Positions 13,915 through 39,830 are shown, counted from the stretch's first letter. The stretch is 64,000 bases of DNA from an uncultured Dehalococcoidaceae bacterium (GCA_964558675.1 CAZLEY010000005.1:1519-65518), one strand, 5' to 3'. The notes: generated by a model not told the origin, from the letters alone. Numbers and translations: made by a program.

Positions 13915-13941
13915 TCCTTCAATCTTAATAATATAAAATTG

Positions 13942-22197: not shown

Positions 22198-24312
22198 ATG
22201 TCATATCGTGTCATCAAATCCACCTGTCGAGGATGCCATGGCGTATGTGGTGTTCTGCTTCATATGAAAGACGGGAAGCTTGTTAAAGTAACCGGAGACC
22301 CTGATAGCCCTACCTCACAGGGATATCTTTGTATCAAAGGTAAATCGGCTCCGGAGTTATTATATCATCCTGACCGGCTGAAATATCCCATGAAGAGAGC
22401 AGGTGAACGTGGGGAAAACAAGTGGCAGAGGATTACCTGGGACGAGGCACTGGATAAGGTCAGTGAGGAATTACTTAAAGTAAAGCAGAATTATGGCGTA
22501 GAATCAATTGTCGGAGCCAGGGGAACAGGCAGGCCTTACTATGTGATGTTTCACAGGTTTCTTAATTGCCTGGGCACACCTAATCGTCTCGGTTTCGCTC
22601 ATCTCTGTTATGGTCCCAGATTGGTGGCCTCGGCGATGACTTGCGGTGACCTGCCTGTATGTGATTATTACGGTTTTGGTGGAGTTAAACCACAGTGTGT
22701 GCTGATATGGGGATGTAATCTGACCGAAGTAGGGGCTGCTGACGGCATGTGTGGCTATCAGCTTACCCAGGTATTGAAGAAAGGTTCAAAATCAATAGTT
22801 GTTGACCCCAGAAGAACGAGATTAGCTGCCGGGGCTGATTACTGGATGCAAATTCGTCCTGGGACGGACGCTGCCCTGGCCATGGGTATGCTCCATGTAA
22901 TCATCAAAGAAGAGCTATATGACAAAGATTTTATCGATAAGTGGACCATTGGCTTTAGCGAGTTGATAGAGAGAGTCGAAGACTATTCTCCGGAAAAAGT
23001 AGCTCAGATTACCTGGGTTTCCGCCGACGATATAAAGGCAGCAGCGCGATTATATGCGACTACAAAACCAGCCTCTATGCAATGGGGCGTCGGCATAGAC
23101 CAGGGGGTAAATAATTATCAGACTATTCGGGCCTTACTTCTACTATCTGGTATTACGGGTAATATGGATGTTCCGGGTGGTGATGTTTTCTGGGTACCCC
23201 CATCTAACGTTGTTGTACAGGCACCGCGTCTCAATCCAGATATAGAGTTGCCAGAAAAGCTGACGCCTGAATCAAAGCGAAAAATGATTGGAGCGAGGAA
23301 ATATAAATTAAGTACGACAATACAACCCGGGGAGTTCATCAATACGGTACTCACTGAAAAACCTTATCCCATAAAGGCTCTGTTTATTATGGGTAGTAAT
23401 TTGTTAGTCGGTCACAGCGATTGTTTAAGGATGGTCCAGGCGTTGCGGAAAATCGATTTTATAGTTGCGACAGATTTATTTATGACACCAACGACTCAAT
23501 TTGCCGATATTATCCTGCCGGCTGCAAGCTGGCTGGAAACTGACGATGTACCTGACCTTCATATGGTCTGGTGTGTTACTGCCCGGTCAAAAGTGGCTAC
23601 GATAGGTGAATGCAGAGACGATAAGCAGATTATTTTCGACCTTGCGCATCGCATGGGAATGGAAGACTGTTTTCCGTGGCGTGATACCACAGAATATTGC
23701 GATTGGTTGCTGAAGGATACAGGGATGACTTTTGAGGAATTTAAGGAAATTACCATTCTCAAAGGTAAGATGCAATATAAAAAATACGAACAGGTCGGAT
23801 TCAGAACGCCTTCCGGTAAATTTGAAATTTACTGTCCAGCTTTGAAAGATATGGGGTATGACCCATTGCCTTATTATGTTGAACCTCCAGAAAGTCCCTA
23901 TTCTACGCCAGATATTTTTAATGAGTATCCATTAATAATAACCACCGGAGCCAGGATTCAGGCTTTTTTCCATACTGAGGGTAGGCAGATAAAATCGCTA
24001 CGCCAGATAAACCCGGAACCAAAGGTTGATATACACCCTGATACGGCAAGGAAATTGGCGGTAAAAGATGGCGATTGGGTTTGGATTGAAAGTCCAAGAG
24101 GCGGCAGAATAAAACAGAGAGCCAGCCTCACAGATGGTATTAATCCTGGTGTTGTGAGTGCCCAGCATGGCTGGTGGTTTCCAGAAAAAGAACCTTGGGA
24201 ATACGGATTTACAGAGTCAAATGTTAATATGCTAACACATGAGATGTCTCGTGACCCTCAAACGGGCTCAGAACCATGGCGTTCCTTTCTCTGTAAGATA
24301 TACAAGGTATAG
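22198..24312 (+). CDS. cytoplasmic bis-PGD molybdo/tungsto-enzyme catalytic subunit (stand-alone, [4Fe-4S] N-terminal motif)
   Basis: 704 aa. CRGCHGVCGV...LCIKG matches the Cx2Cx3Cx27C motif. No RR signal. MopB core motifs and the C-terminal tail FLCKIYKV are shared with 25270 and 33629. Confidence 0.85.
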   Translation: MSYRVIKSTCRGCHGVCGVLLHMKDGKLVKVTGDPDSPTSQGYLCIKGKSAPELLYHPDRLKYPMKRAGERGENKWQRITWDEALDKVSEELLKVKQNYGVESIVGARGTGRPYYVMFHRFLNCLGTPNRLGFAHLCYGPRLVASAMTCGDLPVCDYYGFGGVKPQCVLIWGCNLTEVGAADGMCGYQLTQVLKKGSKSIVVDPRRTRLAAGADYWMQIRPGTDAALAMGMLHVIIKEELYDKDFIDKWTIGFSELIERVEDYSPEKVAQITWVSADDIKAAARLYATTKPASMQWGVGIDQGVNNYQTIRALLLLSGITGNMDVPGGDVFWVPPSNVVVQAPRLNPDIELPEKLTPESKRKMIGARKYKLSTTIQPGEFINTVLTEKPYPIKALFIMGSNLLVGHSDCLRMVQALRKIDFIVATDLFMTPTTQFADIILPAASWLETDDVPDLHMVWCVTARSKVATIGECRDDKQIIFDLAHRMGMEDCFPWRDTTEYCDWLLKDTGMTFEEFKEITILKGKMQYKKYEQVGFRTPSGKFEIYCPALKDMGYDPLPYYVEPPESPYSTPDIFNEYPLIITTGARIQAFFHTEGRQIKSLRQINPEPKVDIHPDTARKLAVKDGDWVWIESPRGGRIKQRASLTDGINPGVVSAQHGWWFPEKEPWEYGFTESNVNMLTHEMSRDPQTGSEPWRSFLCKIYKV

Positions 24313-24362
24313 AGATAGAACCAGTCTACGAAAAATTTGAGAGTGGAAGAAGGTGGCAACTA

Positions 24363-25133
24363 ATGCTTGAAAAAGGATTTCACTACGATATAGGCGAATA
24401 TAAGTGTATAATTTTTAGCGATGGTACGCTTGTGAACCAGGAATCGGAGGACGAAGAGGTATTTAGCTTAAATAGTCTATTAATCAACTCAGGAGACCAT
24501 AAAATACTTATAGATACTGGATGTGGCGATGGATTTCAATCTACTGCCGGGTGGTTAGTTAAAAACCTGGAGGCAGAAGGAATAAGATGTTCGGATATTG
24601 ATAGAATCATTTTCACCCATGGTCATATAGACCATGTCGGTGGCAGCTTTGATTCACAGGGAAGGCCCGTTTTCCCCAACGCTCGTTATATAGCGACCGA
24701 AAGGGAGTGGGAATGCTGGGTGACCAGACCGGAGAGAAGCGAACTCCAGAACATGTTTTTTAGTCCCGCTCGAAAAAACCTGCTGCCTGTCCGGGACCAA
24801 TTCGACCTGGTGAAGGATGATGCTGAAGTATTCCCTGGTATTAAGCTCATGGCAGCCCCAGGACATACTCCAGGCAATGTCATGGTAGATATATCATCGG
24901 GGGAAGAACGACTTGTTTGTATCGGAGACATAATCCATTCACAAATTGAGTTCGTTAATCCTGAATATTTAGCCTTATTCGACGTTACGCCTGAACAGGC
25001 ATTACATACGAGGACTCGAATACTATCTGATATCGCAGAATCCGGGATTCTTGTTTTTGCCTGTCATTTTCCGTTCCCGGGCCTTGGCTACATAACGCAC
25101 AACGAAGGCGCCTTCACCTGGCAGCCTATCTAA
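24363..25133 (+). CDS. MBL-fold metallo-hydrolase
   Basis: IIFTHGHIDHVGG and APGHTPG motifs. Confidence 0.8.
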   Translation: MLEKGFHYDIGEYKCIIFSDGTLVNQESEDEEVFSLNSLLINSGDHKILIDTGCGDGFQSTAGWLVKNLEAEGIRCSDIDRIIFTHGHIDHVGGSFDSQGRPVFPNARYIATEREWECWVTRPERSELQNMFFSPARKNLLPVRDQFDLVKDDAEVFPGIKLMAAPGHTPGNVMVDISSGEERLVCIGDIIHSQIEFVNPEYLALFDVTPEQALHTRTRILSDIAESGILVFACHFPFPGLGYITHNEGAFTWQPI

Positions 25134-25269
25134 AAGTATCTTATCTCTAGTTATTAAGTCATTCCTGATTGGGAATGAAGATTCGAGTCGAAATTTAAAA
25201 ATTCAAGTATGTATTCGGGCAGAGTTCGACTCTCATACAGGATTTATCAGTCTAGCGAGGTAATCTTCT

Positions 25270-27369
25270 ATGAGTAAAAGCAAACCCACCATAGTCCGTA
25301 CCGTGTGCCGGGAGTGTAATATCAGGTGTAATATACTCGTACACGTCACTGATGGCCGGGCGATTAAGATAGAAAGCGTTCCCGATTCTCCAGACTCGGA
25401 GGGTCAGCTTTGTTCCAGAGTAGCAGCTGCTCTAGAGCGGCTTTATCATCCCCGGCGCCTGACATTTCCTCAAAGAAGGGCTGGTGAACGTGGCGCCGGG
25501 AAATGGGAAAAGATAACCTGGGAAGAAGCTTTAGACGAGATTGCAGAGAAACTCGTCCATGCTAGAGATGAATTTGGAGCTGAGTCCGTCAGCCTGGTAA
25601 AAGGTTTTTATGATAGGCATGCCGACTTCGTGTCCCGGCTGGGAAACGCCTTTGGTACTCCCAATGTTGCCAGTATCGATAATACCTGCTATGTCCCCAG
25701 TGCTGCCGGGCGTCTGATGACGTACGGTTTTGACGGTGTTTCGGATTTAAATGGTTCTCCTGAATGTGTCATGTGCTGGGGAAGCAGCGCCAACCCTCCC
25801 GTTAAGGAAGGCGGCAAGCTGATAGTCATTAATACCCTCAAGACCGCGGCAGCCAGGAAGGCGGATATCTGGCTTCAGCCTCGTCCGGCGACTGACCTCG
25901 CCCTGGCGTTAGGTATACTGAATGTAATCATCAATGAGAAACGCTACGACCGTGATTTCGTCAAAAACTGGACAACCGGTTTTGACAGGCTGGAGGAACA
26001 TATCCAGCGGTATTCTCCGGAGAACGTGGCCGAGATAACCTGGGTGCCGGCTGACGATATCGTTGAAGCCGCCAGGCTATTCACGAGATACCGATATGCC
26101 TGTTTGATGAACGGAAACGCGAGTGAGGACACCTATAACAGCACTCAGTTTGCCCGGGCAATCGCCATCATTCAGGCCATATGCGGTCTTCTGGATATCC
26201 CCGGCGGCACAATCGAGGCAGAGGGGCTAATTAAGAATGAAGCCACTGCCGACGACATACTGCGCCATGAGTTGCCCGTTGAAAAGGAAAATAAGAAGCT
26301 GGGTTCCGAACGAGGATATTTACCGCCAAACGACTTATGGTATTCCATTGCCAGTAAACCCGTGGAAATCCATCCGCAACACCTTGTCAGTGCCATTCTG
26401 GAGGAAAAACCTTATCCCATTCAGGCAGTAGGGATTATGGGAAGCAACCCTCTGCTCACCTGGAGCAACTCGCGCAGGGTTTATGATGCATTTATGAAGG
26501 TCCCCTTTTTATTTGTGAGCGAACTTATAATGACTCCGACTGCAGCTCTTGCTGATATTGTGCTTCCGGTGGCTTCCTATCTTGAAACGGATGGCGTTGT
26601 CGTTTCGAGTTTGGGCTCAGGTGTGACCTTTCTTCAAGCCCAGCAGAAGGCGGTTGAGGTTGGAGAATGCCTTTCCAACCAGGAAATTGTAATCAGGTTG
26701 GCGGAAAAACTGGGATTAAGCCGGTACTTCTGGAAGGACCTTGATTCATATCTGGATGCGTATCTGGCGCCAATCGGTATAACGTTCTCAGAATTGCGGC
26801 AGAGGTCTAGAGTTATTACTTCCGCTACCCGCTACCGGAAGTATCTGGAAAAAGGTTTCGATACTCCCTCCGGGAAAGTAGAAATATATTCAAGTCTCTG
26901 TGCAGAATGGCGATACGAACCGATGCCTGTTTACCATGAGCCTGAGGAAACACCGGTAAGCAGTCCGGAGCTGCTTGATGAATATCCCCTGATACTGACG
27001 AGCGTACATGAAACTAACTACGTTCATTCGCAGGACAGATACCTTGCGGCTATCCGCAGTGAGAAACCGGAACCTCTGGTAATCATTCATCCTGAGACAG
27101 CGGCGAAATGGGGAATAGCCGATGGCGGTATGGTTTATATAGAAAACAGGCGGGGTAGGATAAAACAGAAAGCCAGTTTGAGCGAAGATATCATGCCCGG
27201 GGTTATCAGCGTTGGCTACGGCTGGTGGTTTCCTGAAAGAAGTGTCTCGGAATTGTACGGATGGGATGAAGCCAATATTAATATATTAACCGATGATTCT
27301 CCCCCCTATAGCCCCGAAATGGGTTCGCCAAAGATGAGGGGCTTTCTCTGTAAAATATACAAGGCCTGA
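25270..27369 (+). CDS. cytoplasmic bis-PGD molybdo/tungsto-enzyme catalytic subunit (stand-alone paralog)
   Basis: 699 aa. CRECNIRCN...LCSR FeS motif, no RR signal, C-terminal FLCKIYKA. Confidence 0.85.
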   Translation: MSKSKPTIVRTVCRECNIRCNILVHVTDGRAIKIESVPDSPDSEGQLCSRVAAALERLYHPRRLTFPQRRAGERGAGKWEKITWEEALDEIAEKLVHARDEFGAESVSLVKGFYDRHADFVSRLGNAFGTPNVASIDNTCYVPSAAGRLMTYGFDGVSDLNGSPECVMCWGSSANPPVKEGGKLIVINTLKTAAARKADIWLQPRPATDLALALGILNVIINEKRYDRDFVKNWTTGFDRLEEHIQRYSPENVAEITWVPADDIVEAARLFTRYRYACLMNGNASEDTYNSTQFARAIAIIQAICGLLDIPGGTIEAEGLIKNEATADDILRHELPVEKENKKLGSERGYLPPNDLWYSIASKPVEIHPQHLVSAILEEKPYPIQAVGIMGSNPLLTWSNSRRVYDAFMKVPFLFVSELIMTPTAALADIVLPVASYLETDGVVVSSLGSGVTFLQAQQKAVEVGECLSNQEIVIRLAEKLGLSRYFWKDLDSYLDAYLAPIGITFSELRQRSRVITSATRYRKYLEKGFDTPSGKVEIYSSLCAEWRYEPMPVYHEPEETPVSSPELLDEYPLILTSVHETNYVHSQDRYLAAIRSEKPEPLVIIHPETAAKWGIADGGMVYIENRRGRIKQKASLSEDIMPGVISVGYGWWFPERSVSELYGWDEANINILTDDSPPYSPEMGSPKMRGFLCKIYKA

Positions 27370-27467: not shown

Positions 27468-27794
27468 TCAGCCGCAATATAACGGCGTTACACCGCTAGC
27501 GGTTAACCTGTGAATGTGCCCCCCTTCGCAAATGGGGCATTTTATGTTTTTCTCCTGTGAGGGGCTGCCGGGCACCGGTAATGTAAATTTATTCTGGCAC
27601 TGCTGGCATTCATATTCCCATTCAAGTATCCCTTCATATGAATCAGAGCCGATTGGTGCCCAGGATGGCATTTCCTGGACTTGAGAGTTCCCGCACCTGG
27701 GGCATTTTACCTTTTTCTCCGGTACGAGGTCGCAGGCGACTGGCAACCTGAAGATATTGCCACATTGCTGGCATAAATACATATATTCACTCAT
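27468..27794 (-). CDS. double zinc-ribbon protein (FmdB-like CxxC pairs)
   Basis: CQQCGN...CPRCGN and CQQCQN...CPICEG, which makes two tandem CxxC-CxxC ribbons. Confidence 0.6.
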   Translation of the reverse strand: MSEYMYLCQQCGNIFRLPVACDLVPEKKVKCPRCGNSQVQEMPSWAPIGSDSYEGILEWEYECQQCQNKFTLPVPGSPSQEKNIKCPICEGGHIHRLTASGVTPLYCG

Positions 27795-27918: not shown

Positions 27919-28614
27919 TCATTTCCGGGGATATTCAATGCATAAATCAATGAAAACGTAATCGCTGCTTACCCAATAATCACTCAATCTGGACCTGCTG
28001 AGGATTTCACGTACCTCCGGGATGGTATAGCTGGCCAGAATAGCCTTAGGCCAGTTTTCCCGGTGTCGTTTGTTCATAAACCGGGAGATAAGCCAGATAA
28101 TCACTTTCCATGCAGGGTTCTGGTAGACTCTTTTATTATCTCTGATAATGGCATGTCCGGTCTCTCCGGTCACCCTGGCTACCTCATCAAATACGGTTAC
28201 AGGTTGGAACCAGTGATGCAATGAAGCGTAGCTGAAAACCAGGTCGAAGGAATTATCGGCAAAGGGGAGTGCCGCCGCCGTGGATACCAGGAAAGTTATC
28301 TTGTTTTCGACTCCGCAGTGTCTGGCGTTTTCCCTGGCTTTATTTATCATCGCCTCTGAAATATCAAGGGCGGTAATCTCAAAATGGCAGCCTTTAACTC
28401 TGGCCAGTTCAATAGCCAGGCGGCCGGGGCCTGTGCCGATATCCAGTACCCGCCCGCTCCTTATTCCTCTACTCAGAATCTTCCTGGTGAAATACTTATA
28501 TTCAGGCATCATGTAGAATCTGGCGCCCTTATCGTATTGAATAACGGCGTCCATATCAGCTATCGGTTCCTCAGGAAGGGGTATTCTATCACCCATAAAG
28601 TCTCTCCTCTTCAA
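27919..28614 (-). CDS. class I SAM-dependent methyltransferase
   Basis: VLDIGTGPGRLAIELA (motif I) and DLVFSYASLHHW. An alternative start is Met7 at 28596. Confidence 0.8.
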   Translation of the reverse strand: MKRRDFMGDRIPLPEEPIADMDAVIQYDKGARFYMMPEYKYFTRKILSRGIRSGRVLDIGTGPGRLAIELARVKGCHFEITALDISEAMINKARENARHCGVENKITFLVSTAAALPFADNSFDLVFSYASLHHWFQPVTVFDEVARVTGETGHAIIRDNKRVYQNPAWKVIIWLISRFMNKRHRENWPKAILASYTIPEVREILSRSRLSDYWVSSDYVFIDLCIEYPRK

Positions 28615-28629: not shown

Positions 28630-29754
28630 TTACATACCTTTTAGAGAGGTGTATATTCCGCCGGTGCCGCCGTAGAGTTTAAGCCCGTACGTTTCGTATA
28701 TAGGCAGGGCTGCTTCATAAAGATAGAGCATCCTTTCTACAGCGGGTGGTTCCAGGTCTTCGTAGGCAGAATTCATCATAGGAGTAAATGGCACTATGGA
28801 GCATACTACCCCCATGGAAGCGGCCATTTCCACACCTTTGAGCATGGTCTCGTCACTCTCACCGAGTCCGGCAATGGCCATGGTGTAGACCTCGTTGTAC
28901 CCGAACACATCCAGGCATTTCGCCCACACTCTCTTGTAGTCGTCTATCGTGTTCTTACCCTTCATAGGCATGATGTCTTCCCGGAGACTCTCGTCAAAGC
29001 ACTCGATGTTGCACAGGGCGGTAGTAGCGCCGCAGGCTTTACCCTCACGCAGAAGCGAATCAAGCATAACATAATCAGTCAGGGGCTCGAAATTAAGCGT
29101 CATGGTAACATCAGCCTTCTTGTGTATGAGCCTGGCTGCCTCCACTATATCTTCCAGCCCCTTGCCGCGGGTGAGCTTGGTGCCGGTGCTGAGGGTTACG
29201 TGCTTCGCCATACCCTCTTTATAGGCGGCTTCAGCGACCTCGGCGACTTGAGCGGGGGTCTTGTCCATGTAGCCCGCCCACCAGCTCTCTATGGCGCAGA
29301 ACTTGCAGCCTTTGCCGATTCTCTGGTAGCCGCACCGCTGATTCAGTACGGAGCGGAGGTGGTCGGGTTCGCCGATAACGGCGACATCGCTCATCGGGAT
29401 ACCGTCACTGGTGGTCATGTCATAATACTCGGGGCGGGGCATCATGGTGATACCCGTGTATTTTCTGCCATTCTTCCGGATTTCATACCTGCCCGAGTCG
29501 GCCTTGACCACGTGGAACGGTGTTTTTTTGGAAAATTTGCCGTTAATTATAAGGACAGTGGTAAATAAGCCGGTTACCGGCTGCTCCAGAAGGAAGACGA
29601 ATCTTCCCCTCTTTATAGCCGGTGCGTTCCACTCCCTTTCAAGTTCGTCCTGTAGTTCCGGCGGAACGAGCACCCCGTTCGCCTGGAGCTCGATCTTTAT
29701 CCTGCCCAGTACACCAGTTTCATCCGTGTAAGTTTTTATTGCCATGTTCGACAT
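28630..29754 (-). CDS. radical-SAM-like TIM-barrel protein with atypical CX8CX2C motif, paralog 1
   Basis: 374 aa with AGGAGGGA upstream of the start. Motifs NQRCGYQRIGKGCKFCAIESWW, then TLSTGT, NIECFDESLRED and AGLGESDE, which resemble radical-SAM core strands. Family not identified. Confidence 0.55.
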   Translation of the reverse strand: MSNMAIKTYTDETGVLGRIKIELQANGVLVPPELQDELEREWNAPAIKRGRFVFLLEQPVTGLFTTVLIINGKFSKKTPFHVVKADSGRYEIRKNGRKYTGITMMPRPEYYDMTTSDGIPMSDVAVIGEPDHLRSVLNQRCGYQRIGKGCKFCAIESWWAGYMDKTPAQVAEVAEAAYKEGMAKHVTLSTGTKLTRGKGLEDIVEAARLIHKKADVTMTLNFEPLTDYVMLDSLLREGKACGATTALCNIECFDESLREDIMPMKGKNTIDDYKRVWAKCLDVFGYNEVYTMAIAGLGESDETMLKGVEMAASMGVVCSIVPFTPMMNSAYEDLEPPAVERMLYLYEAALPIYETYGLKLYGGTGGIYTSLKGM

Positions 29755-29818
29755 AACGTATTTCCCTCCTGCATTTAACTAACTCTGTTTCCGCTTACCT
29801 GATACACTTTATATAGTT

Positions 29819-30988
29819 CTACCGGGTTCCGAATCTGGCCACATCCTTTATAGCGCTGAAACCGCCGCCCCGGACACAGCCGGCCTTACAGGCGCACAGG
29901 TCCAGTCCGTGTTTTCTATAGATGCCTACTGCCTGCTCGTAGAGTGAAATCATCCTGTCAGCCCCCGGTGCCTCCATATCCTCATAGGCAGCGCCTATAG
30001 CCGGACTGTGCGGCACCAGAAATGTCATTACCCCGTGAGAGGCGGCTATTTCAACACCCTTCAGAATTGATTCGTCTTCTTCACCAATGCCGGCAACAGC
30101 CACGGTGAACACCTCATTATCACCAAATATCTCAAGGCATTTTTCCCAGGTGCTGATATACGTGGCTACGGGAATCTTGCCTTTCGCCGGCATCACCTCC
30201 TGACGGAGGCTCTCGTCAAAGCATTCAATGTTGCAGGAGACAGTGGTGACACCCGCCTGTCTCGCCTCCTTCAGGAGAGAATCAAGAAGGGAATAATCAT
30301 CAATTGGTTCAAACTCAAGCATGATGGGGATGTTTGCCCTTGATTGTATCAACTTAGCCGTCTCCGCCAGGTGTTCAAGTCCCTTGCCCTCGGTGTTCAG
30401 GGTGGCCGTTGTTAGAGACACGTGCTGTGCCACTCCTTCGTTAACCGCTGCCGCAACGGTATCAGCGATTTCTGGCAGGGCTTTCTCGATGTTTGCGTCC
30501 CACCAGTGCTGTATGGCGCAAAATCGGCATGCCTCGCCTGTCTGGTGATAGTAACAACGTTGGTTCACCACCGAGCGTAAGTGTCCCGGCCCCACGACCA
30601 CCGCCAGCTTGTGCCCGGGAATGCCGCTACCGGTAATGCTGTCATAAAATTCCGGACGCGGCAGCAATGTGATATCTGTGTACTTCTCGTCATCCTTCCA
30701 GACTTCATACCGGTTGGAGCCATTCCTGACCAGGTGAAAGGGTGATGCCGATACTCGTTTCCCGTTGACGATAAAAGCCGGGACCAGCTCGCCCTTATTT
30801 TCAGGCGATTCAAGGCATAAGACCATTCTCCCGGTTTTAATGGATGGGACATTGCACCTTGTTTCCAGTTCACCTGTCAGTTCCTGGGGAATTTTCACGC
30901 CTCTCGACTGTAGCTCGGCTTTTTTTCTGGCTAATGAATCTGACCTGTTCATAATATTGCTCTTAATTATATTAGTTGCTTGTGTCAC
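29819..30988 (-). CDS. radical-SAM-like TIM-barrel protein with atypical CX8CX2C motif, paralog 2
   Basis: 389 aa. GTG start 3 nt after the UbiA stop (alternative start Met13 at 30952). NQRCYYHQTGEACRFCAIQHWW. Collinear with 28630..29754 throughout. Confidence 0.55.
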   Translation of the reverse strand: MTQATNIIKSNIMNRSDSLARKKAELQSRGVKIPQELTGELETRCNVPSIKTGRMVLCLESPENKGELVPAFIVNGKRVSASPFHLVRNGSNRYEVWKDDEKYTDITLLPRPEFYDSITGSGIPGHKLAVVVGPGHLRSVVNQRCYYHQTGEACRFCAIQHWWDANIEKALPEIADTVAAAVNEGVAQHVSLTTATLNTEGKGLEHLAETAKLIQSRANIPIMLEFEPIDDYSLLDSLLKEARQAGVTTVSCNIECFDESLRQEVMPAKGKIPVATYISTWEKCLEIFGDNEVFTVAVAGIGEEDESILKGVEIAASHGVMTFLVPHSPAIGAAYEDMEAPGADRMISLYEQAVGIYRKHGLDLCACKAGCVRGGGFSAIKDVARFGTR

Positions 30989-30991
30989 TTT

Positions 30992-31975
30992 TTATATTTG
31001 AGCTAGAAAAATAGTCAGCAATATGGCTGCTGAAATTACCAGCCGGAATATTGTAAGGGCAGTGAAAGCCCTGAGTTCTTTACCCTTGTTCAGGGTGTCC
31101 TTATATAACCTCAACCCGCCAATCAGGGCGTAAGTACCGGCAGCTATCACCAGAATGAGGTAGAGAATGCCCAGAGGAGCTAAAAAGACCAGTAATATGC
31201 TTAGTATCAATGTCAGGCAGGTGAAAACTACTCCAATTTTCACGGCAGCTTGCGGCGAAGGCTTGAAGAAGAGCGCCGGCGGCGCCTTGATATCCGGCTT
31301 ATGCCCGGCATCTGGCATTATGTGCGTGGGATAATAAATCATGATATGGGCTGTCTGCCAGGCAACACCGAGGATATAAAGATACCAGGGGAGGAAACTG
31401 CTAAACAGTGTTTCCGGGGAGAACGCTGCCCAGCCCCCCAGGTAAATCAGCCCCACGATGGGCGGTAGTGATAGATAGCCGACCCTGTCGCGAAGGTAGA
31501 TAGAGTAAAAGCCGCCCAGGATAATCGCCAGAAGAAGAATAGAGAAAGTCAGCGGATTAAAAACCAGCCAGACTATAGCCAGGCTGATGGCAAACGATGC
31601 TATTACCACCAGTAAGGCTTCGCTGGGTCTTACTCTACCCGATGGTATGGCGCGGGTCGGCCAGATATGCCTGTCCCTCTCCCGGTCCATGTAATCGTTA
31701 AAGACATTGACGGCGCATGAGGCAAAGGCTACGGCCAAGAAGCCGAGGAGACACTCCGTGAGCGAAGGGTAGCCTCCCGATGCCAGTACGGCGGCGCTGG
31801 CAGCGTTTAGCGGTGTTAAAATAAAAAAGGCAGGCCGGATTATAGTCACAAAGCCTGACAGCCTGTACTTAAAGCTCGACGCATGCCGGACAGCAAGCCC
31901 CTGGCCTGAGCCGGTCAGCGTTAGGGCATCCTGGCGAACATTTGCTGGTGCACTTACTTTAATCGAATTCATCAT
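30992..31975 (-). CDS. UbiA-superfamily prenyltransferase, divergent
   Basis: Trimmed to MMNSIK... (ATG at 31975, overlapping the fixX TGA as TGATG). First Asp-rich motif NDYMDRERD. About 8 TM helices. The second Asp-rich motif is not evident. Confidence 0.7.
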   Translation of the reverse strand: MMNSIKVSAPANVRQDALTLTGSGQGLAVRHASSFKYRLSGFVTIIRPAFFILTPLNAASAAVLASGGYPSLTECLLGFLAVAFASCAVNVFNDYMDRERDRHIWPTRAIPSGRVRPSEALLVVIASFAISLAIVWLVFNPLTFSILLLAIILGGFYSIYLRDRVGYLSLPPIVGLIYLGGWAAFSPETLFSSFLPWYLYILGVAWQTAHIMIYYPTHIMPDAGHKPDIKAPPALFFKPSPQAAVKIGVVFTCLTLILSILLVFLAPLGILYLILVIAAGTYALIGGLRLYKDTLNKGKELRAFTALTIFRLVISAAILLTIFLAQI

Positions 31976-32244
31976 CAGAACCTGTAGCTGATGCCGTACC
32001 CGCCCATGGGGTATTCCCAGACTATCGCTCCCTGGTCGCAGATGATGCGGCAGGTTCCGCATTCCAGGCAACCTTCCCAGGAGAAGACGACATTGCCATC
32101 ATCATTCAGAGTATAGTTTTCCGCGGGGCATATATAGGTGCATAGTTTATGTGGGCACCGGCGGCATACTTCCTGGTCCACTTTTATATGCGGTTCATTG
32201 CCAACATGAAATAAGTTCAAGGCTAACTTATCGTCGGTCTTCAT
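31975..32244 (-). CDS. fixX: FixX-type ferredoxin-like protein
   Basis: Trimmed to MKTDDKLALNLFHV... (ATGA overlap with the fixC stop at 32241-32244). CRRCPHKLCTYICP...CLECGTCRIIC. Confidence 0.8.
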   Translation of the reverse strand: MKTDDKLALNLFHVGNEPHIKVDQEVCRRCPHKLCTYICPAENYTLNDDGNVVFSWEGCLECGTCRIICDQGAIVWEYPMGGYGISYRF

Positions 32245-33626
32245 ATAAAGGCTATCGCTCCCTTCAAACACTTCCAGAGGAAACTTACGGTTGGACACAT
32301 TCTAGAGATAAATCGTTGTAGTCTGTTGCGGCGTCTCAAGACGGCATTATCACGGGTATAATAATCACGCAGGTTCGCCCGGAATCTTTTGAGCATTCCG
32401 AATTCATGCCGGCGCTTGGGCATCTCATTCACGGCAAAATAGTCGGTGGCTATCTGGGTTATCGCGTCGAAGTAGCCATTGAAGAACTCGGGATACGCCT
32501 CGGCGAAGCGGTTCAGTTTCCGGTACCTTTTCAGGTCTTTCATGACAAAGCTTTCGCTTAAAAGCTTCTGATAGCGGGAAAGGCTTTTCTCAGAGTAATC
32601 GCCTTTCTTCCTGGCCTCAAGTACCGTCTTCGCCGCTGCCTCGCCGGAAGCCATGGCGAAGTTGGTACCCTCATAATGTATTGAGGCGTTGAGAAAACGG
32701 GCCGCATCGCCGGCGATAAGCAGTCCGCCGGTGTAATACTTCGGGGTGAAATCATAGCCACCGTCCGGGGCCAGGTGCGCCTGGTATTCCACGGTCTTGC
32801 CACCCTTGAGATAGTTCCTGACGAAAGGGTGCTCCTTGAAATGCTCCATTAGTTCCGTAGCTTTGTACCGGCCTGCCGTCAGGGGCTCAACGCTTATCCA
32901 GGTGACTACGGATAGAGTATCCAGGTTCGTATAGATATTGCCGCCGCCCCAGATACCTTTCGTGGCGTCGCCGGCTATGTATTTCAGTTCGACACCTTCG
33001 TTGCCGCTGAGGTTAAAGCGCTCCTCGATTACCTCACGGGGAAGCTCAATTACCTCTTTCATACCCAGAGATACCTGGCGCGGCCTGAACTCCTTCCTCA
33101 GGTCGGCTTTCCTAGCGAGGAGAGAATTGACGCCGTCAGCCGCAATAACGGCATCGGCATAGACTTCACCATCTTCTCCCCTGGCTTTCACGCCGACGAC
33201 CCTGTTGCCTTCCCACAGCAAATCATCAATCACCGTATCGGTGATAAGCATCGCCCCGGCTTCCCGGGCCTTCCGGGCATACCAGCTATCAAACTTGGAT
33301 CGGTATACGGTAAAGCTATTATTGTAGGGTGGCTGGTTGTTCTCCTCGCTCTCCACGCCGACAGACACCGCGTTATTCTCTGAGATGATGTATATTCTCA
33401 GTCCTTTAATATGGCGCTCTACGGGCGCTTCTTCCCAGAAGTTGGGTATGAGGCGGTTGAGGATGGGGGTGTAAAGGATGCCGCCGAAGACATTCTTGGC
33501 TCCGGGGTGCGCCCCACGCTCCACCAGCAGGACTTCCGCTCCTGCCCTGGCTAGGACGTAGGCGGCCGTTGTCCCGGCAGGACCGGCGCCAACAACGATG
33601 ACATCGAATTTTTCAGGGTTACCCAC
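32241..33626 (-). CDS. fixC: FixC-type FAD-dependent oxidoreductase (ETF:quinone oxidoreductase family)
   Basis: GTG start 3 nt after the upstream stop. FDVIVVGAGPAGTTAAYVLARAGAEVLLVERG..GAKNVFGG, ADGVNSLLARK and LIAGDAA. Collinear with E. coli FixC as far as I recall it. Confidence 0.85.
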   Translation of the reverse strand: MGNPEKFDVIVVGAGPAGTTAAYVLARAGAEVLLVERGAHPGAKNVFGGILYTPILNRLIPNFWEEAPVERHIKGLRIYIISENNAVSVGVESEENNQPPYNNSFTVYRSKFDSWYARKAREAGAMLITDTVIDDLLWEGNRVVGVKARGEDGEVYADAVIAADGVNSLLARKADLRKEFRPRQVSLGMKEVIELPREVIEERFNLSGNEGVELKYIAGDATKGIWGGGNIYTNLDTLSVVTWISVEPLTAGRYKATELMEHFKEHPFVRNYLKGGKTVEYQAHLAPDGGYDFTPKYYTGGLLIAGDAARFLNASIHYEGTNFAMASGEAAAKTVLEARKKGDYSEKSLSRYQKLLSESFVMKDLKRYRKLNRFAEAYPEFFNGYFDAITQIATDYFAVNEMPKRRHEFGMLKRFRANLRDYYTRDNAVLRRRNRLQRFISRMCPTVSFLWKCLKGAIAFI

Positions 33627-33628: not shown

Positions 33629-35875
33629 TTATGCAGCCTTCTTCTTGCGTATTTTGCCCTCTTGCCCGAAGGGAACCATGCCAATATCGCCTTCATACCC
33701 CTGCAACCTGTATGCCCCTCTCGGCAGGTCTTTCATGTCTTCCTTCTCCACCTTGTATATCTTGCACAGCAAGCAGGTGAGGTCGGGCGCGCCGTACATC
33801 GGGTCGAAGTGCTCATTGGAAGTAAGAACATCGGGACTGGATATGGTCAGTCCGTGGAGCGGAGCGGGTTCCTCGGGGTAGAAGCAGTTGCCTGTCGCCA
33901 TAACCACGCGGGGGTCAATGCCGGGGAACACCCGGGCTACCTGTCTGATGCGGCCCCTTGGTGATTCAATCCACATCCAGTCGCCATCCTTTATCCCATG
34001 CTTTTCGGCTGTATCGGGGTTGATTTGGGCAATCGGGTAAACCCCGAAGCTTCTCAGCCACGGTATGTTCCGGTATTGACTGAGGAAGTAGAACGGCTGA
34101 CGGTACCCACTGGTAAGGACGTAGGGGTATTCTTCGGCCAGTTCTGGTGTGGAAGAGGGACTTTCGCCTGGCTCGACGAAGTACGGCAGCGGGTCGTAAC
34201 CCAGACCTTGAAGGACTGTTGAATATAGCTCCAGCTTTCCGGTAGGGGTGGGGAAACCACCCCCCTGCCTCCAGTAGTCCGTCTTGTATTTATAGTAGAC
34301 CTGCTCCCTGCCTGTCCTGGCCACAACCGCCTTCTCGCTGAATTCCTTCCAGGTTATTTTCCCTTGCCTCAGTTGATAATCCAGCATCTCTTCCACGGTG
34401 TTCCAGGGCCAGTATTCAGGAGCCACCCGTTTACCTATCTCCAGAGCCACCTTGTTATCCGGCCAGGCCTCGCCCGGAGGCTCGACGCACTTGTTGATGG
34501 CTTCAATCATAAAGCGAGGGTGCATGTCAAAAATATCATCCATTTCCAGCCAGTGAGCTGCCGGCAGCACTATATCGGCGTGTTCTGCCTGCGGCCCCAT
34601 AAAATGGTCAAGCTGGACGAGGAAGAGGTCTTCCTTTTCGAAGGCTTTTATCACGTACCCTGTATTCGCCAGGTGGACTATCTGCTGCCCGGCTATGGCA
34701 ATCCACACCCTTATTCTATCGGGATGGTCTTCCACTATTTCCTTAATTACGGTATCGGAGTGGGAGGTGCGGGCAGCGCCCATTTTATATGTATCGCCAC
34801 CTCTTATTCTGTTCTTCATTTCGTCCGTTATGGGAATTTCAAAGATGAAGTCTTCCATCAGACCGGTATCCGGCAGTACCCAGCTCATCATGCTGCCCGG
34901 TCTTTCGATGTTGCCGGTTATCCCCAGTAAGTCAACTACGGCTCTCATGGTCTGGCCGCAGTTGGCCTGTCTTTCTATGGAACTGCCGACCTGAATAGTC
35001 CCCGGGGTATCTATGGCAAACAGGCGGGCGGCGTTTATGATTTTTTCCTCGGGAATCCAGGTAATTTCGGCCACTTTTTGTGGAGGGTACTCCTGTGCCC
35101 TTTCCTTTAGTTCGTCGAAACCGTATGTCCAGTTCTCGACAAACTCCTTGTCGTATATCCCCTCGTTGATGATGACATTCATCATGCCGAGGAGCAGGGC
35201 AGCGTCGGTGCCGGGTCTGATTTGCAGCCACTCCGTTGCCCTTGAGGTCATGGCGGTTGCCCTGGGGTCGATAACAATCAGATTCTTCACATGGTCCAGT
35301 GATTTCATGAAATAATACGCCATTTCACCGTCGGCACTGCTTATTTCCAGTTGCTTGGCCAGGACTATTTGCGTCTTGGGGTATTCCCCTCCCCAGCCGT
35401 GGTAGTCACAGTAAAGCCGGCCGTAGCCCGTTACCAGTCCGTATATACCCAGCCTCGGGCTGTGGCAGATATAGCCCGGGGTTATCGTGTTGCCGGAACC
35501 TATGGACCGGGCCAGACGGTGAATATAGCGGTTACAGCCCCGGCCGGTTCCCTGGGATACCGCTATGGTATGCGGACCGTATTTCTCCCTGGCTTCGTTT
35601 ATCTTTTGGGCAATGGTATCCAGCGCCTCGTCCCAGCTTATCCTCTGCCATTTCCCTTCACCTCTTTTACCAGTCCTTTTCAGGGGATATTTAAGCCGGT
35701 ACGGGTTGTTAATGTGCTGTAAGGACGATAGTCCCTTGGCGCACATCGTACCGCTGGTCGGGGTCTCCGGATTTCCTTCTACGTGAATAATAACGCCGTC
35801 CTCAACCGTAACCAGGACGCCGCAGCCGCCGTGGCAGCCTTTGCAGGTGGTCTTGACTATCTTCTTTTCACCCAT
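33629..35875 (-). CDS. bis-PGD molybdo/tungsto-enzyme catalytic subunit (PsrA/acetylene-hydratase-like clade), no Tat signal
   Basis: 748 aa. N-terminus MGEKKIVKTTCKGCHGGCGV...MCAKG. MMNVIINEGIYDKEFVENW block. C-terminal LLCKIYKV. GAGGAG ribosome-binding site. Confidence 0.9.
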   Translation of the reverse strand: MGEKKIVKTTCKGCHGGCGVLVTVEDGVIIHVEGNPETPTSGTMCAKGLSSLQHINNPYRLKYPLKRTGKRGEGKWQRISWDEALDTIAQKINEAREKYGPHTIAVSQGTGRGCNRYIHRLARSIGSGNTITPGYICHSPRLGIYGLVTGYGRLYCDYHGWGGEYPKTQIVLAKQLEISSADGEMAYYFMKSLDHVKNLIVIDPRATAMTSRATEWLQIRPGTDAALLLGMMNVIINEGIYDKEFVENWTYGFDELKERAQEYPPQKVAEITWIPEEKIINAARLFAIDTPGTIQVGSSIERQANCGQTMRAVVDLLGITGNIERPGSMMSWVLPDTGLMEDFIFEIPITDEMKNRIRGGDTYKMGAARTSHSDTVIKEIVEDHPDRIRVWIAIAGQQIVHLANTGYVIKAFEKEDLFLVQLDHFMGPQAEHADIVLPAAHWLEMDDIFDMHPRFMIEAINKCVEPPGEAWPDNKVALEIGKRVAPEYWPWNTVEEMLDYQLRQGKITWKEFSEKAVVARTGREQVYYKYKTDYWRQGGGFPTPTGKLELYSTVLQGLGYDPLPYFVEPGESPSSTPELAEEYPYVLTSGYRQPFYFLSQYRNIPWLRSFGVYPIAQINPDTAEKHGIKDGDWMWIESPRGRIRQVARVFPGIDPRVVMATGNCFYPEEPAPLHGLTISSPDVLTSNEHFDPMYGAPDLTCLLCKIYKVEKEDMKDLPRGAYRLQGYEGDIGMVPFGQEGKIRKKKAA

Positions 35876-35895: not shown

Positions 35896-36834
35896 TTAAT
35901 GGTAAGCAGATGTGGTCACCGGCAGTATCGGATTATGTATGCCGGCTTTCAGCAGGACATACTTGAGAGCGACCGCACCAAGTGTATGCAATACAACAGC
36001 GGTGATTAATAACGGAACCGAGGCTTCGCCGGCGAAGTAACTGGAAACTGATATGGCTAATGGTATGATGATGCCAAGGATAATGACGCCTACCCAGAAA
36101 GGTATGGCCAGTCTCCCTCTCACCAGGAGCATTGCCGAGTATTTAGCCGTCTTTGAGGTGTAAGTGGCATTCCAGAGATATACAATTATCAGTATGATGT
36201 TAGCAATCAACACAATACGGCTGCCGGTCTCGACGGCTGCGATATTTACAGAGGTATCCACCAGGCCGACGGCCAGCATCAGGGCAAACCCGTCAGCGAC
36301 GCCGGCGAGGAGCAGAATCAGGGGTAGCATGGCCGTATTCCAGAAGGGAATACTCCGGCAGTAGCTCATGATAAAACCGCTGTATATGCCCACGAGGAAG
36401 GCAGCTATGCCGCCCAGTACCCTGAACACGATATCCCAGGCGTCCCAGGCGGTACCGGGGAAGACATTTATAGCCAGGTAGGTAACAACAAGCTGTATAA
36501 AAACAATGCTGCCAAATAAAATGGTAAAAGTAATGCCCCGGGTAAACCAGGAAGTCTTCCAGGCATCGGTAAAGGGCGGTATTGTTCGCCAGAAACGGAG
36601 CGGCTTGCCGAAGTAAATAAGGTGCGGCGGCAATTTCAAGAACATGATGATAAGCCAGGCAACCAGCATGCCCCACCAGTTACTGTAAAATAACGAAATC
36701 AGGTAGAGGCCGGCACCAAGCGACGTAAATACCTCGGCAACCCAGACCAGTATACCCTTACGCTCTATCCATTCAGTCTGCGGGGTGGGTTTCACCATCC
36801 ACTCGTGGTTTACCATCCACTGACGTAATGCCAT
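35896..36834 (-). CDS. NrfD/PsrC-type integral membrane anchor subunit
   Basis: 312 aa with about 8 predicted TM helices. It lies between the FeS and catalytic subunit genes. Confidence 0.75.
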   Translation of the reverse strand: MALRQWMVNHEWMVKPTPQTEWIERKGILVWVAEVFTSLGAGLYLISLFYSNWWGMLVAWLIIMFLKLPPHLIYFGKPLRFWRTIPPFTDAWKTSWFTRGITFTILFGSIVFIQLVVTYLAINVFPGTAWDAWDIVFRVLGGIAAFLVGIYSGFIMSYCRSIPFWNTAMLPLILLLAGVADGFALMLAVGLVDTSVNIAAVETGSRIVLIANIILIIVYLWNATYTSKTAKYSAMLLVRGRLAIPFWVGVIILGIIIPLAISVSSYFAGEASVPLLITAVVLHTLGAVALKYVLLKAGIHNPILPVTTSAYH

Positions 36835-36836: not shown

Positions 36837-37496
36837 TCAGGCTCCTCTCCGTCCTTTATCGATGTAATATACTGAAGGGTCGGTATCATATTCGGGATGA
36901 AGCTGGAATCCTCTACTATTGCGTATAAGCTGCCTTACTTCGCTTTCAGGGTCGTCCAGGTCACCGAAGGTAAGTGCCCTGGCCGGGCAGGTATTGACGC
37001 AGGCAGGCGTGGCTTCACGGTCTACTCCCGGTTTTAGTCCCTTCGCCAGCCCGGCATCAATCCTTTCCATGCAGAAATTGCACTTCTCCGTCGTACCGAC
37101 AGTGTGGGGGTATAACCGCTTGCCGGCTTTTTCAAACTCAGTCAGTTCGTAGCCGGGGAAATATCCCGTATCCTTGTCCTTTGAGAGGAAAATCCTGTTC
37201 TGGTAAGGACAGGCGATTATGCAATATCGGCAGCCAACGCACTTGTCTTGGTCAACCCAGACTATCCCATCTTCTCGCTGTTGCGTGGCATTGGTAGGGC
37301 AGACCTTGACGCAGGGCGCATCCTTACAGTGGTTGCACCGCACCGGGTACGTCGTCATTTCTTCGGCTGTCTCTTCCCAGGCAATCAACCTTGACCAGGT
37401 TATGCCGAGAGGAAGGAAGTGCTCGACCCTGCAGGCGGCTACGCAGCCATGACACCTCATGCACTTGCTTAAGTCTATGACCATTCCCCATCTCAT
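36837..37496 (-). CDS. 4x[4Fe-4S] electron-transfer subunit (PsrB/DmsB/NrfC type)
   Basis: Four Cys clusters: CMRCHGCVAAC, CNHCKDAPCVKVCP, CVGCRYCIIACP and CNFC...CVNTCP. Confidence 0.9.
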   Translation of the reverse strand: MRWGMVIDLSKCMRCHGCVAACRVEHFLPLGITWSRLIAWEETAEEMTTYPVRCNHCKDAPCVKVCPTNATQQREDGIVWVDQDKCVGCRYCIIACPYQNRIFLSKDKDTGYFPGYELTEFEKAGKRLYPHTVGTTEKCNFCMERIDAGLAKGLKPGVDREATPACVNTCPARALTFGDLDDPESEVRQLIRNSRGFQLHPEYDTDPSVYYIDKGRRGA

Positions 37497-37827: not shown

Positions 37828-38493
37828 ATGGCGGTTAATCTAAAAATACTGGCTAAAATGCAATACTTTGCTGGCCTTACTCCGGATGAGCTTGAGGAGG
37901 TCAGTAAGTATATCGCCTTTGAGAAAAGAATCGAGAAAGGGCAGACTCTACTGCTTGAAGGCGACCAGTCCGAATATATGTATTTGATAGCTTCCGGTGC
38001 GGTGAAAGTGTACAAAAGGTCAGCTAACAGAAAAGAACAGATTCTGAATATAGCTTCCACCGGGGAATCGCTTAACGATGTATCAACCTTTGATGGCGGC
38101 GCGTGCGCTATGGATATGCTAACGATGACTCCTGTACGTCTCTACGCCATAACCAAAAAAGATGTGAAGGCTCTCTTCACGGCATTTCCCAGGGTAGCTC
38201 TGAATGTGGCCGGAGTTCTGGCGGCTAAGGTCCGCCGTGATTCGTCTCTGGTGGAGGTACTATCATTTGACCAGGTTATCAGCCGTTTAGCTCGTCTGAT
38301 TCTTAAGCAATCCGATGCCGGACAGGGTCTGTTACCACATTTTACGCAGCAGGACCTGGCGGCCATGGTTGGTACCAGCCGGGTAGTGGTCAACAGGTCT
38401 CTGCGGGTTATGGAGGAGAAAGGGGCCATAAGGCTGGAGCGCCGCCGCATTGTTATTACCGATGAACAGGCTTTGAAGAATCTGGTAAGGTAA
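37828..38493 (+). CDS. Crp/Fnr-family transcriptional regulator
   Basis: N-terminal cNMP-binding-like beta-barrel and a C-terminal HTH (FTQQDLAAMVGTSRVVVNRSLRVMEEKGAI). No N-terminal FNR Cys cluster. Confidence 0.85.
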   Translation: MAVNLKILAKMQYFAGLTPDELEEVSKYIAFEKRIEKGQTLLLEGDQSEYMYLIASGAVKVYKRSANRKEQILNIASTGESLNDVSTFDGGACAMDMLTMTPVRLYAITKKDVKALFTAFPRVALNVAGVLAAKVRRDSSLVEVLSFDQVISRLARLILKQSDAGQGLLPHFTQQDLAAMVGTSRVVVNRSLRVMEEKGAIRLERRRIVITDEQALKNLVR

Positions 38494-38570: not shown

Positions 38571-39200
38571 ATGGCTACATTGGAAGAATTGCAGGCGAGA
38601 ATACAAAGACTGGATGACATAAAGCAGATAGAGAGGTTACAGAGAATCTACGGCTACTATCGCGACTACGAGGAGTGGGAGAAGGTCGTCGACCTTTTCA
38701 GTGATAACGCCGAGTCAGTAGAGGAATGTGACTATGGCGTCTATAAGGGCAAGGAAGGCGTCAGGCGGTATTACATCGACCTTCTCAAGGGCGGCAAGGA
38801 CGCCAAACCCAGGACTGGCTACATGTCCATCGGTATGCAGATTCAGGGCGTGGTCACGGTTGATTCTGACGGCAAGACCGCTAAAGGCCGCTGGTACGGT
38901 TTCTTTGCGGAAGCCCGGCCTACGCTGACCTTGCATGAGGGGGAACTCAGGCAGTTGTGGGCTCACGGCATTTACGAGAACGAGTATGTCAAGGAGGATG
39001 GCAAGTGGATGTTTAAAAAACTCCATTTCTTCCTTAATTTCCGCACGCCGTACGAGGACGGCTGGCTCAAGACCCCGGTTGTCGGCCATAACGGCCCCAG
39101 CTTAGAAGTACCTCCGGATGCTCCGCCCACTACCTGGCGCCCCTATCCGTTCGGGTATCACTTCCCGGTTCATTTCAAGCATCCTATTACCGGACAATAA
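38571..39200 (+). CDS. NTF2/SnoaL_4-like protein, paralog 1
   Basis: LEELQARIQRLDDIKQIERLQRIYGYYRDYEEWEKVVDLFSDNAESVE. C-terminal tail PDAPPTTWRPYPFGYHFPVHFKHPITGQ. GAGGAGG ribosome-binding site. Confidence 0.7.
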   Translation: MATLEELQARIQRLDDIKQIERLQRIYGYYRDYEEWEKVVDLFSDNAESVEECDYGVYKGKEGVRRYYIDLLKGGKDAKPRTGYMSIGMQIQGVVTVDSDGKTAKGRWYGFFAEARPTLTLHEGELRQLWAHGIYENEYVKEDGKWMFKKLHFFLNFRTPYEDGWLKTPVVGHNGPSLEVPPDAPPTTWRPYPFGYHFPVHFKHPITGQ

Positions 39201-39217
39201 GAAAAAGGTGATATGTC

Positions 39218-39811: not shown

Positions 39812-39830
39812 ATAAAAAAGGTGGTGAACT

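Follow-up and report, generated by a model that had tools for sequence, protein, structure and literature searches.

A tandem pair of variant radical-SAM paralogs beside prenyltransferase, methyltransferase and quinone-type redox genes in uncultured Dehalococcoidia

The DNA analyzed here, a stretch of 64,000 nucleotides (nt) from an uncultured Dehalococcoidaceae bacterium (GCA_964558675.1 CAZLEY010000005.1:1519-65518) that is called the window below, carries a tandem pair of genes for predicted radical S-adenosylmethionine (SAM) proteins on its minus strand. The gene rSAM-A (28630..29754, minus strand; A in the following) starts with ATG and encodes 374 amino acids (aa), with a family-specific N-terminal domain at about residues 1-125 and a radical-SAM barrel at about residues 126-360. 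The gene before it, rSAM-B (29819..30988, minus strand; B), encodes 389 aa with the GTG at 30988 as its start; a start at the internal ATG (30952) would give 377 aa. The NCBI gene call for B (P0001) uses this internal methionine, 12 codons later, and the longer N-terminus (MxQ..L.KN) is kept in homologs. Both proteins are collinear, with 49% identity over 366 aligned residues (E 1e-135), and their similarity lies far above chance expectation. A first-pass annotation of this DNA had described two tandem collinear open reading frames (ORFs) of 374 and 389 aa, and they are found exactly where it placed them. All the motifs it quoted are also present (NQRCGYQRIGKGCKFCAIESWW in A, NQRCYYHQTGEACRFCAIQHWW in B, TLSTGT/SLTTAT, NIECFDESLR in both and AGLGESDE/AGIGEEDE), and the N-terminal domain, put there at about 110 aa, measures about 125 aa.

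Profile searches and structure prediction both indicate the radical-SAM superfamily. The Pfam model Radical_SAM (PF04055) was passed by A (47.6 bits) and B (40.0 bits) at a gathering cutoff of 29.5. Both proteins also passed the cutoff of 125 of the NCBIfam model variant_rSAM (NF045502), with 172.5 bits for A (profile positions 7-356 of 357) and 176.6 bits for B (7-357). The AlphaFold2 model of A is of high quality (mean pLDDT 90.3, pTM 0.89). When the PDB was searched with it by Foldseek, every top match was a radical-SAM core (HydE, BioB, LipA, RlmN, NifB, ThiH or HydG), with E values from 3e-7 to 3e-5, a probability of 1.00, about 240 aligned residues and a target-normalised TM of at most 0.68. 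It is thus almost certain that A and B are radical-SAM enzymes. The first-pass annotation had left a choice between an uncharacterised radical-SAM subfamily working as a pair and a different, non-radical-SAM Fe-S TIM barrel. The HMMER runs and the structure prediction it proposed, together with the co-occurrence of B and A described below, support the former and give no support to the latter.

Sequence searches of the PDB returned nothing at E<=1 for a 91-sequence family profile and noise only for B alone, and no relative with a solved structure is detectable in this way. The N-terminal 125 residues or so form two helices and a small beta-rich unit, which is well predicted within the full-length model and reaches a pLDDT of 74 when modelled alone. 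A Foldseek search of the PDB with this domain gave no fold match (best E 0.53, TM 0.2) and hence no functional clue.

The most distinctive feature of both proteins is the arrangement of their cysteines. The canonical CX3CX2C spacing is absent from A and B, which carry a CX8CX2C variant with a conserved Phe instead. In A, the motif NQRCGYQRIGKGCKFCAIESWW holds Cys141, Cys150 and Cys153; the predicted cluster-binding loop (29296..29334, minus strand) reads CGYQRIGKGCKFC, with Phe152 as the aromatic residue before the third cysteine. In B, Cys145, Cys154 and Cys157 lie within NQRCYYHQTGEACRFCAIQHWW, and the corresponding predicted loop (30518..30556, minus strand) is CYYHQTGEACRFC. The loop is followed by AI..WW in both proteins. 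The CX8CX2C spacing with an aromatic residue before the third cysteine was found in all 239 full-length close homologs (119/119 of the B type, 120/120 of the A type). Conservation of the three cysteines among homologs had been named beforehand as one point on which the assignment could fail, and they proved invariant in an alignment of 91 sequences covering both paralog types. Outside A and B, 98 of 113 full-length wider-family representatives have the same spacing, and most of the others have CX5, CX7 or CX9. This distribution shows a family trait and no accident of two genes. RadicalSAM.org lists CX8CX2C for several uncharacterised megaclusters (4-6-1, -3, -5 and -6; PMC9477430). The spacing is thus already documented, with no reaction assigned to it.

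Other sequence features set A and B apart within this family. The signatures A[IV]xxWW, after the third cysteine, and N[IV]E[CS]F are essentially confined to them. A C-terminal CX2CX2C motif (AGCVRCGAC), which could hold a second cluster, is present in 73 of the 113 wider-family representatives and in none of the 239 A and B homologs; B has a degenerate AGCVRGGGF at this position, and the C-terminus of A is GGTGGIYTSLKGM. Outside the triad, the only strongly conserved cysteines are those at positions 248, 252 and 280 of A (near-invariant, at least 90%), and they form no recognisable cluster-binding motif in the homolog alignments. Further profile matches are weak. LipS2 comes first (E 3e-8; 33.7 bits for A and 24.2 for B at a cutoff of 270), followed by PylB, LipA, BioB and HmdB, with LipA and BioB at E>1e-3. 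Sulfur insertion of the BioB/LipA type was considered and is unlikely, as no auxiliary-cluster cysteines are conserved. The scores on the family models also remain below cutoff.

The MSMEG_0568-type family (TIGR04043), tentatively named in the first-pass annotation, was a useful lead, although the proteins are not members. TIGR04043 is the second-best NCBIfam match for A and the best for B (E 1e-50 to 1e-57), and many homologs are annotated as 'TIGR04043 family' by the Joint Genome Institute (JGI). Such a match might suggest that A and B share the role of the radical-SAM protein of the Nit1C cluster, which is associated with nitrogen starvation and cyanide assimilation. The composition of this nitrilase cluster has been described, as has its radical-SAM gene, with "biotin synthase-related" COG2516 proteins as nearest relatives (PMC1199592). 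However, the scores of 172.1 bits (A) and 195.7 bits (B) both fall below the cutoff of 303.7. True members such as P0260 (371 bits) and P0276 (409 bits) are fusions of about 520 aa with an MSMEG_0567/Sll0786 GNAT domain and with the C-terminal CX2CX2C, unlike A and B. Neither the window nor the related loci (L001-L075) showed a GNAT, nitrilase, AIR-synthase-like or flavoprotein partner in the flanking 10 kb or so on each side. On these three grounds, profile cutoff, gene context and the missing C-terminal motif, a Nit1C-type function was rejected and is extremely improbable. By their profile scores, A and B belong instead to a catalogued but uncharacterised variant radical-SAM family.

Within this family, A and B form a narrow group. 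In an exhaustive HMMER search of 1.84 billion cluster representatives, 1250 clusters proved related at E<=1e-3 and 644 at the stricter E<=1e-10. Scores above 380 bits were reached by no more than about five full-length clusters (50% identity), and the next scores were about 240; this gap marks the A/B clade as narrow. All the named A/B matches come from uncultured Chloroflexota, Dehalococcoidales or Dehalococcoidaceae.

The pairing of B and A was followed across 73 related loci; GTDB genomes contributed five of these, metagenomes 57, and exact protein look-up the others. The window genes were mapped onto them by tblastn, and duplicates as well as loci with only a clade-C (see below) or outgroup relative were left out of the counts. 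In all 41 loci with enough sequence to tell, B has A after it, and conversely A has B before it in 40 of 41 cases, so that the co-occurrence of the paralogs, which had been suggested as a check, is nearly complete. The gene directly before B is UbiA, or the UbiE-like methyltransferase itself standing after UbiA, in 38 of 39 loci, a count corrected for two gene overlaps of 4 nt that had been mis-scored by the script. Two orders exist: UbiA-B-A-methyltransferase, often followed by an FmdB-type double zinc-ribbon gene, and UbiA-methyltransferase-B-A. The fact that the gene set is kept while its order varies argues for functional coupling. No description of a duplicated clade with such a prenyltransferase, methyltransferase and redox module was found in the literature, and it is this combination, the pair with its prenyltransferase, methyltransferase and quinone-type redox partners in uncultured Dehalococcoidia, that is the new element here.

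The history of the pair can be approached through its nearest relatives. A neighbour-joining tree has the form (C,(A,B)), where C is a single-copy clade (P0243, P0393) with about 45% identity to A as well as to B; P0245 and then the wider family lie further out. In L010, the clade C gene (rSAM-C) stands in the order cytochrome b561, UbiA, ATP-binding cassette (ABC) ATPase, permease, methyltransferase, rSAM-C and SsuA/NMT1-type binding protein. Since clade C retains cytochrome b, UbiA and methyltransferase as neighbours, the link to these genes predates the duplication. A and B are accordingly a lineage-specific duplication of an enzyme already working in the module. Such a duplication fits the change from a homodimer to a heterodimer, or from one step to two.

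An SsuA/NMT1-type substrate-binding protein comes next both after clade C and after a distant outgroup protein, P0248, with about 34% identity (L010:10001-12102, L016:5886-8006, L076:8001-10101), and genes for an ABC ATPase and a permease are also present in L010 and L076. These neighbours suggest that the ancestral enzyme acted on an imported compound. Outside clade C, the contexts of outgroup proteins (P0306, P0248, P0250, P0254) differ from each other: the neighbours of distant relatives are an AMP-ligase with an aminotransferase, an ABC transporter with an NMT1-type binding protein, a peptidase U32 and an MfnB-like gene. With contexts so heterogeneous, function is not transferable from the distant relatives. 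In L078 (2063-4352), the outgroup relative P0250 lies immediately downstream of the peptidase-U32 family gene. Members of the peptidase U32 family include UbiU and UbiV, which hydroxylate quinones independently of O2.

A strictly co-inherited pair could also consist of one catalytic paralog and a degenerate partner serving as scaffold or regulatory subunit, and the C-termini of A and B indeed differ, the ancestral C-terminal cysteine motif having been lost to unequal degrees. Nevertheless, the cysteine triad, the aromatic residue, A[IV]xxWW, N[IV]E[CS]F and GxGE are kept by at least 95% of the members of both clades, which are similarly conserved (60-95% identity across metagenome-assembled genomes). 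A single gene combining both types exists as well (L048, P0410). As the catalytic signatures persist in both paralogs, a dead subunit is quite unlikely. The combined gene (L048:351-1436, also P0410) encodes 374 aa directly after UbiA, with a B-like N-terminus and an A-like C-terminus; it seems to be a tandem pair merged by recombination, or an assembly chimera.

The genes around the pair, which the first-pass annotation did not consider, carry most of the functional information. Ten genes in the window, from 37496 down to 27468, lie on one strand with short gaps. Directly before B stands a membrane prenyltransferase of the UbiA family (30992..32071, minus strand; PF01040, 110 bits), which contains NDYMDRERD (NDxxDxxxD). 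Its mechanical start, a TTG at 32071, gives an overlap of 97 nt with the upstream gene; the ATG at 31975, which yields about 327 aa, is probably the true start. On the other side, A is followed by a class I SAM-dependent methyltransferase resembling UbiE/COQ5 (27919..28614, minus strand; PF01209, 53 bits at a cutoff of 20.1, plus generic methyltransferase families). Across the loci, this gene is found either after A or between UbiA and B. The last of the ten genes encodes an FmdB-type protein with two CxxC...CxxC zinc ribbons (27468..27794, minus strand; PF09723, TIGR02605). At least 13 related loci have such a gene after their methyltransferase, and its product may be a fifth member of the module, for example an electron donor or a regulator.

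Upstream of UbiA, five genes for electron transfer are found. A FixX-like 4Fe-4S ferredoxin (31975..32298, minus strand) scores 68.9 bits on the FixX model NF011993, below cutoff. Its mechanical GTG start at 32298 overlaps the upstream gene by 58 nt; the ATG at 32244 gives 89 aa, the length at which the ortholog was called in L006 and L015, and is the probable start. It is preceded by a flavoprotein resembling FixC and the electron-transfer flavoprotein (ETF)-quinone oxidoreductase (32241..33626, minus strand; NF007542 FixC, 347 bits, E 1e-103, below the cutoff of 610). With the starts of ortholog length, the FixC and FixX genes overlap by an ATGA, start and stop sharing two bases, and FixX and UbiA overlap by one base; short overlaps such as these are typical of translational coupling. 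Further upstream lie the catalytic subunit of a molybdopterin oxidoreductase of the bis(pyranopterin guanine dinucleotide) (bis-PGD) type with no twin-arginine translocation (TAT) signal (33629..35875, minus strand; PF04879, PF00384, PF01568), which is syntenic in at least 15 loci, and an integral membrane subunit of the NrfD/PsrC type (35896..36834, minus strand; PF03916, 56.6 bits). NrfD/PsrC-type subunits are the usual quinone-interacting anchors of such complexes. The first gene of the apparent operon encodes a four-cluster ferredoxin subunit of the NrfC/DsrO type, assigned by profile matches (36837..37496, minus strand). A promoter-like TTGACA-17-TACTAT at 37667-37639, upstream of nrfC, is a match to the consensus only and therefore suggestive; a scan for promoters and terminators gave no enrichment over shuffled sequences. 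A divergent regulator of the Crp/Fnr family follows (37828..38493, plus strand; PF00027, PF13545) and is syntenic in L001, L009, L015, L024, L029, L035 and L051.

Other parts of the window hold further genes of interest. Beyond the Crp/Fnr gene, the plus strand (38571-43202) carries three tandem paralogs with a SnoaL_4 domain, and then a molybdoenzyme of 914 aa whose first domain is AhtL-like (pyrogallol hydroxytransferase large subunit); a SnoaL_4 triplet also flanks the Crp gene in L009. On the other side of the ten genes (22198-27369, plus strand), two more TAT-less molybdopterin oxidoreductases (704 and 699 aa) stand either side of a protein with a metallo-beta-lactamase fold. In total, four bis-PGD-type molybdoenzymes lie within 21 kb of the window. 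The region 10001-14000, with a G+C content of 0.44 compared with about 0.52, may be a foreign insert; it holds two ORFs of 433 aa (12613-13914) and 156 aa (11347-11817) that match no Pfam family. A protein of 1666 aa encoded at 698-5698 (minus strand), with He_PIG, cadherin-like, DUF11 and bacterial Ig repeats, is probably a cell-surface protein.

In the related loci, an electron-transfer gene of the membrane or quinone type always lies upstream of UbiA, and its identity varies. The order NrfC-like, NrfD-like, TAT-less molybdopterin oxidoreductase, FixC and FixX is shared by the window and at least eight loci; L001, L006, L014, L015, L033, L055 and L060 are among those with these genes. An orthologous cytochrome b561 (PF01292) stands directly before UbiA in at least 14 loci. 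It replaces FixC/FixX in about half of the loci, and cytochrome b, FixC and FixX occur together in L004 and L005. The module is present with no molybdoenzyme in L004, L005 and L036, and with no heme protein in the operon in the window, L006 and L014.

NrfD, cytochrome b561 and FixC/ETF-quinone oxidoreductase are classically quinone-reactive, and UbiA together with a UbiE-like methyltransferase is the standard pair for completing a prenylquinone. Given these neighbours, the simplest reading is a module for a quinone-like carrier. The probability that the two paralogs carry out radical steps in the synthesis or tailoring of such a prenylated and methylated carrier is, in our estimate, roughly 45%. 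A more specific version is tentative and should be taken as a possibility well short of even odds: UbiA, B, A and the methyltransferase might constitute an unrecognised pathway specific to Dehalococcoidia, in which the pair builds or remodels the head group of the carrier and thereby allows quinone-type respiration via NrfD, cytochrome b561 and FixC.

The proposed mechanism can be outlined as follows. Each protein would hold one [4Fe-4S] cluster in the enlarged CX8CX2C loop, bound by Cys141, Cys150 and Cys153 in A and by Cys145, Cys154 and Cys157 in B. Binding of SAM would be aided by the conserved aromatic residue before the third cysteine and by the GLGE/GIGE strand motif. One-electron reduction of the cluster would lead to cleavage of SAM, and the resulting 5'-deoxyadenosyl radical would attack the substrate. 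Small-molecule enzymes (BioB, LipA, HydE, ThiH) have the nearest folds, and the substrate is therefore presumed to be a small molecule as well. The obligate tandem of B and A may reflect two successive radical steps, or a heterodimer. With UbiA and the methyltransferase, the pair would form a four-gene biosynthetic module, the product of which is most likely a membrane-soluble, prenylated and methylated redox carrier resembling a quinone. This carrier could be used by the complex of NrfC, NrfD and molybdoenzyme, by the FixC/FixX pair and, in other genomes, by cytochrome b561. The electron for reduction of the cluster might be supplied by FixX or by the zinc-ribbon protein; alternatively, FixC/FixX may reduce the carrier or its side chain.

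Several observations weigh against a quinone-like carrier. None of the NCBIfam equivalogs for quinone synthesis (MenA, UbiA of the 4-hydroxybenzoate type) was passed by the UbiA protein. Its best NCBIfam scores are 73, 69 and 67 bits, for models of the digeranylgeranylglyceryl phosphate (DGGGP) synthase type (NF009523, NF009521) and for heme-O synthase, all far below cutoff. The methyltransferase also falls below the cutoff for the MenG/UbiE equivalogs and is generically UbiE-like only. The NrfD-type anchors of cultured Dehalococcoides are regarded as operating without quinones, and an NrfD neighbour is therefore no proof of a quinone. A literature search found no characterised member of this variant radical-SAM family, but only the CX8CX2C clusters of RadicalSAM.org and the Nit1C description; nor did it find anything on MSMEG_0568, on TIGR04043, or on Dehalococcoidia with quinone, UbiA, NrfD or radical SAM. 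Finally, L003 is the one clear exception to the gene linkage, its B-A pair lying apart from UbiA and the methyltransferase. The pair is surrounded there (L003:4077-15862) by genes for two peptide-binding proteins of family 5, a peptidase of the M29 family, an enzyme of the enolase superfamily, an enoyl-CoA hydratase and a pyridoxal phosphate (PLP)-dependent decarboxylase of the ornithine/diaminopimelate/arginine (Orn/DAP/Arg) type.

The UbiA scores bring forward the main rival, the tailoring of isoprenoid membrane lipids, in which UbiA acts like archaeal DGGGP synthase and the product is a structural lipid and not a redox carrier. In that case UbiA would create the ether or prenyl linkage of a lipid backbone, FixC/FixX would be a geranylgeranyl-type reductase with its own ferredoxin, and the reactions of A and B (coupling, cyclisation or similar) would take place at unactivated isoprenoid carbons. 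The two highest UbiA scores (NF009523 and NF009521) fit this role, as does the only PDB sequence match of UbiA, the DGGGP synthase 6m31 (E 1e-4). The FixC-like protein also matches the geranylgeranyl-reductase superfamily model and digeranylgeranylglycerophospholipid reductases, and the Foldseek matches of A include GDGT-MAS (7tol), a radical-SAM enzyme that acts on lipids. However, every UbiA subfamily match is far below cutoff, and the FixC-like protein, at 125 bits, does not reach the reductase cutoff of 158.8 and scores far higher on FixC/ETF-quinone oxidoreductase models (347 bits). That cytochrome b561 takes the place of FixC/FixX in roughly half the loci would make no sense for a lipid reductase, and the lasting linkage to NrfD, cytochrome b and the Crp/Fnr regulator points to respiration. 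We consider lipid tailoring unlikely.

The position of UbiA directly after cytochrome b561 in at least 14 loci also recalls heme-O synthase, which is encoded inside oxidase operons. A and B could thus help to make a modified (prenylated, methylated) heme for the cytochrome b, or could mature the neighbouring molybdoenzyme/Fe-S complex in the manner of HydE/HydG, NifB and HmdB. Three of these maturases, HydE, HydG and NifB, are among the top structural neighbours of A, and weak profile matches to HmdB and heme-O synthase exist. Yet the fold similarity to HydE and NifB is no better than that to BioB and LipA, and the auxiliary cluster of such enzymes has no conserved cysteine ligands in A or B. 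Moreover, no client protein is constant, because the module persists where either the molybdoenzyme or the heme protein is missing. A role in maturation or in making a modified heme is therefore very unlikely.

The CX8CX2C variant family has no known reaction, and the tight gene context of the A/B clade offers the first testable function for it. Were the module to produce a membrane redox carrier, it could help to explain how the many cytoplasmic molybdoenzymes of uncultured Dehalococcoidia from sediment and groundwater are coupled to the membrane, and it would represent a new route to prenylated cofactors. A dedicated head-group pathway, if real, would moreover imply quinone-type respiration in a lineage whose cultured members count as quinone-independent. 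Should the product be a lipid or a modified heme instead, the chemistry would still be new. The four module genes are compact (about 4 kb) and suited to heterologous expression.

A comparison with known systems places the pair among several precedents. The TIGR04043 protein has in common with A and B the variant cysteine spacing, the barrel, part of the N-terminal domain and about 30% identity. A and B differ from it in their sub-cutoff scores and in having neither the GNAT domain, the Nit1C context nor the C-terminal CX2CX2C. The group of BioB, LipA, LipS1/LipS2, HydE, ThiH and PylB provides the closest solved folds, weak profile matches and the GxGE strand motif; its cysteine spacing is different, and A and B possess no auxiliary-cluster ligands and have an extra N-terminal domain with no fold in the PDB. 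Within this group, LipS1 and LipS2 set a precedent for dividing a single task between two different radical-SAM proteins. CofG and CofH are a further precedent, as two paralogous radical-SAM enzymes that build a ring system.

A parallel in gene logic is the futalosine pathway. There, the paralogous radical-SAM enzymes MqnE and MqnC build the ring system, MqnP of the UbiA family prenylates it, and MenG/UbiE methylates it. The likeness of this set to the module is a functional analogy and not homology: neither A nor B matched the CofH/MqnE/MqnC family models at E<=1, and a distant relative (P0258) reached 37 bits at a cutoff of 426 on a model of this group. Genes for MqnA, MqnB, MqnD or a decarboxylase of the UbiD/UbiX type (futalosine MqnL/MqnM) were not seen near the module. 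The family to which A and B belong is NF045502 (COG2516, 'biotin synthase-related'; RadicalSAM.org megaclusters 4-6-x), with which they share a full-length match, N-terminal domain included, and the CX8CX2C loop. It is a broad bin defined at the domain level, to which no function is assigned. The A/B clade, in contrast, is a narrow group of Dehalococcoidia, distinguished by its own signatures (A[IV]xxWW, NIECF), by the loss of the C-terminal CX2CX2C and by its tandem duplication.

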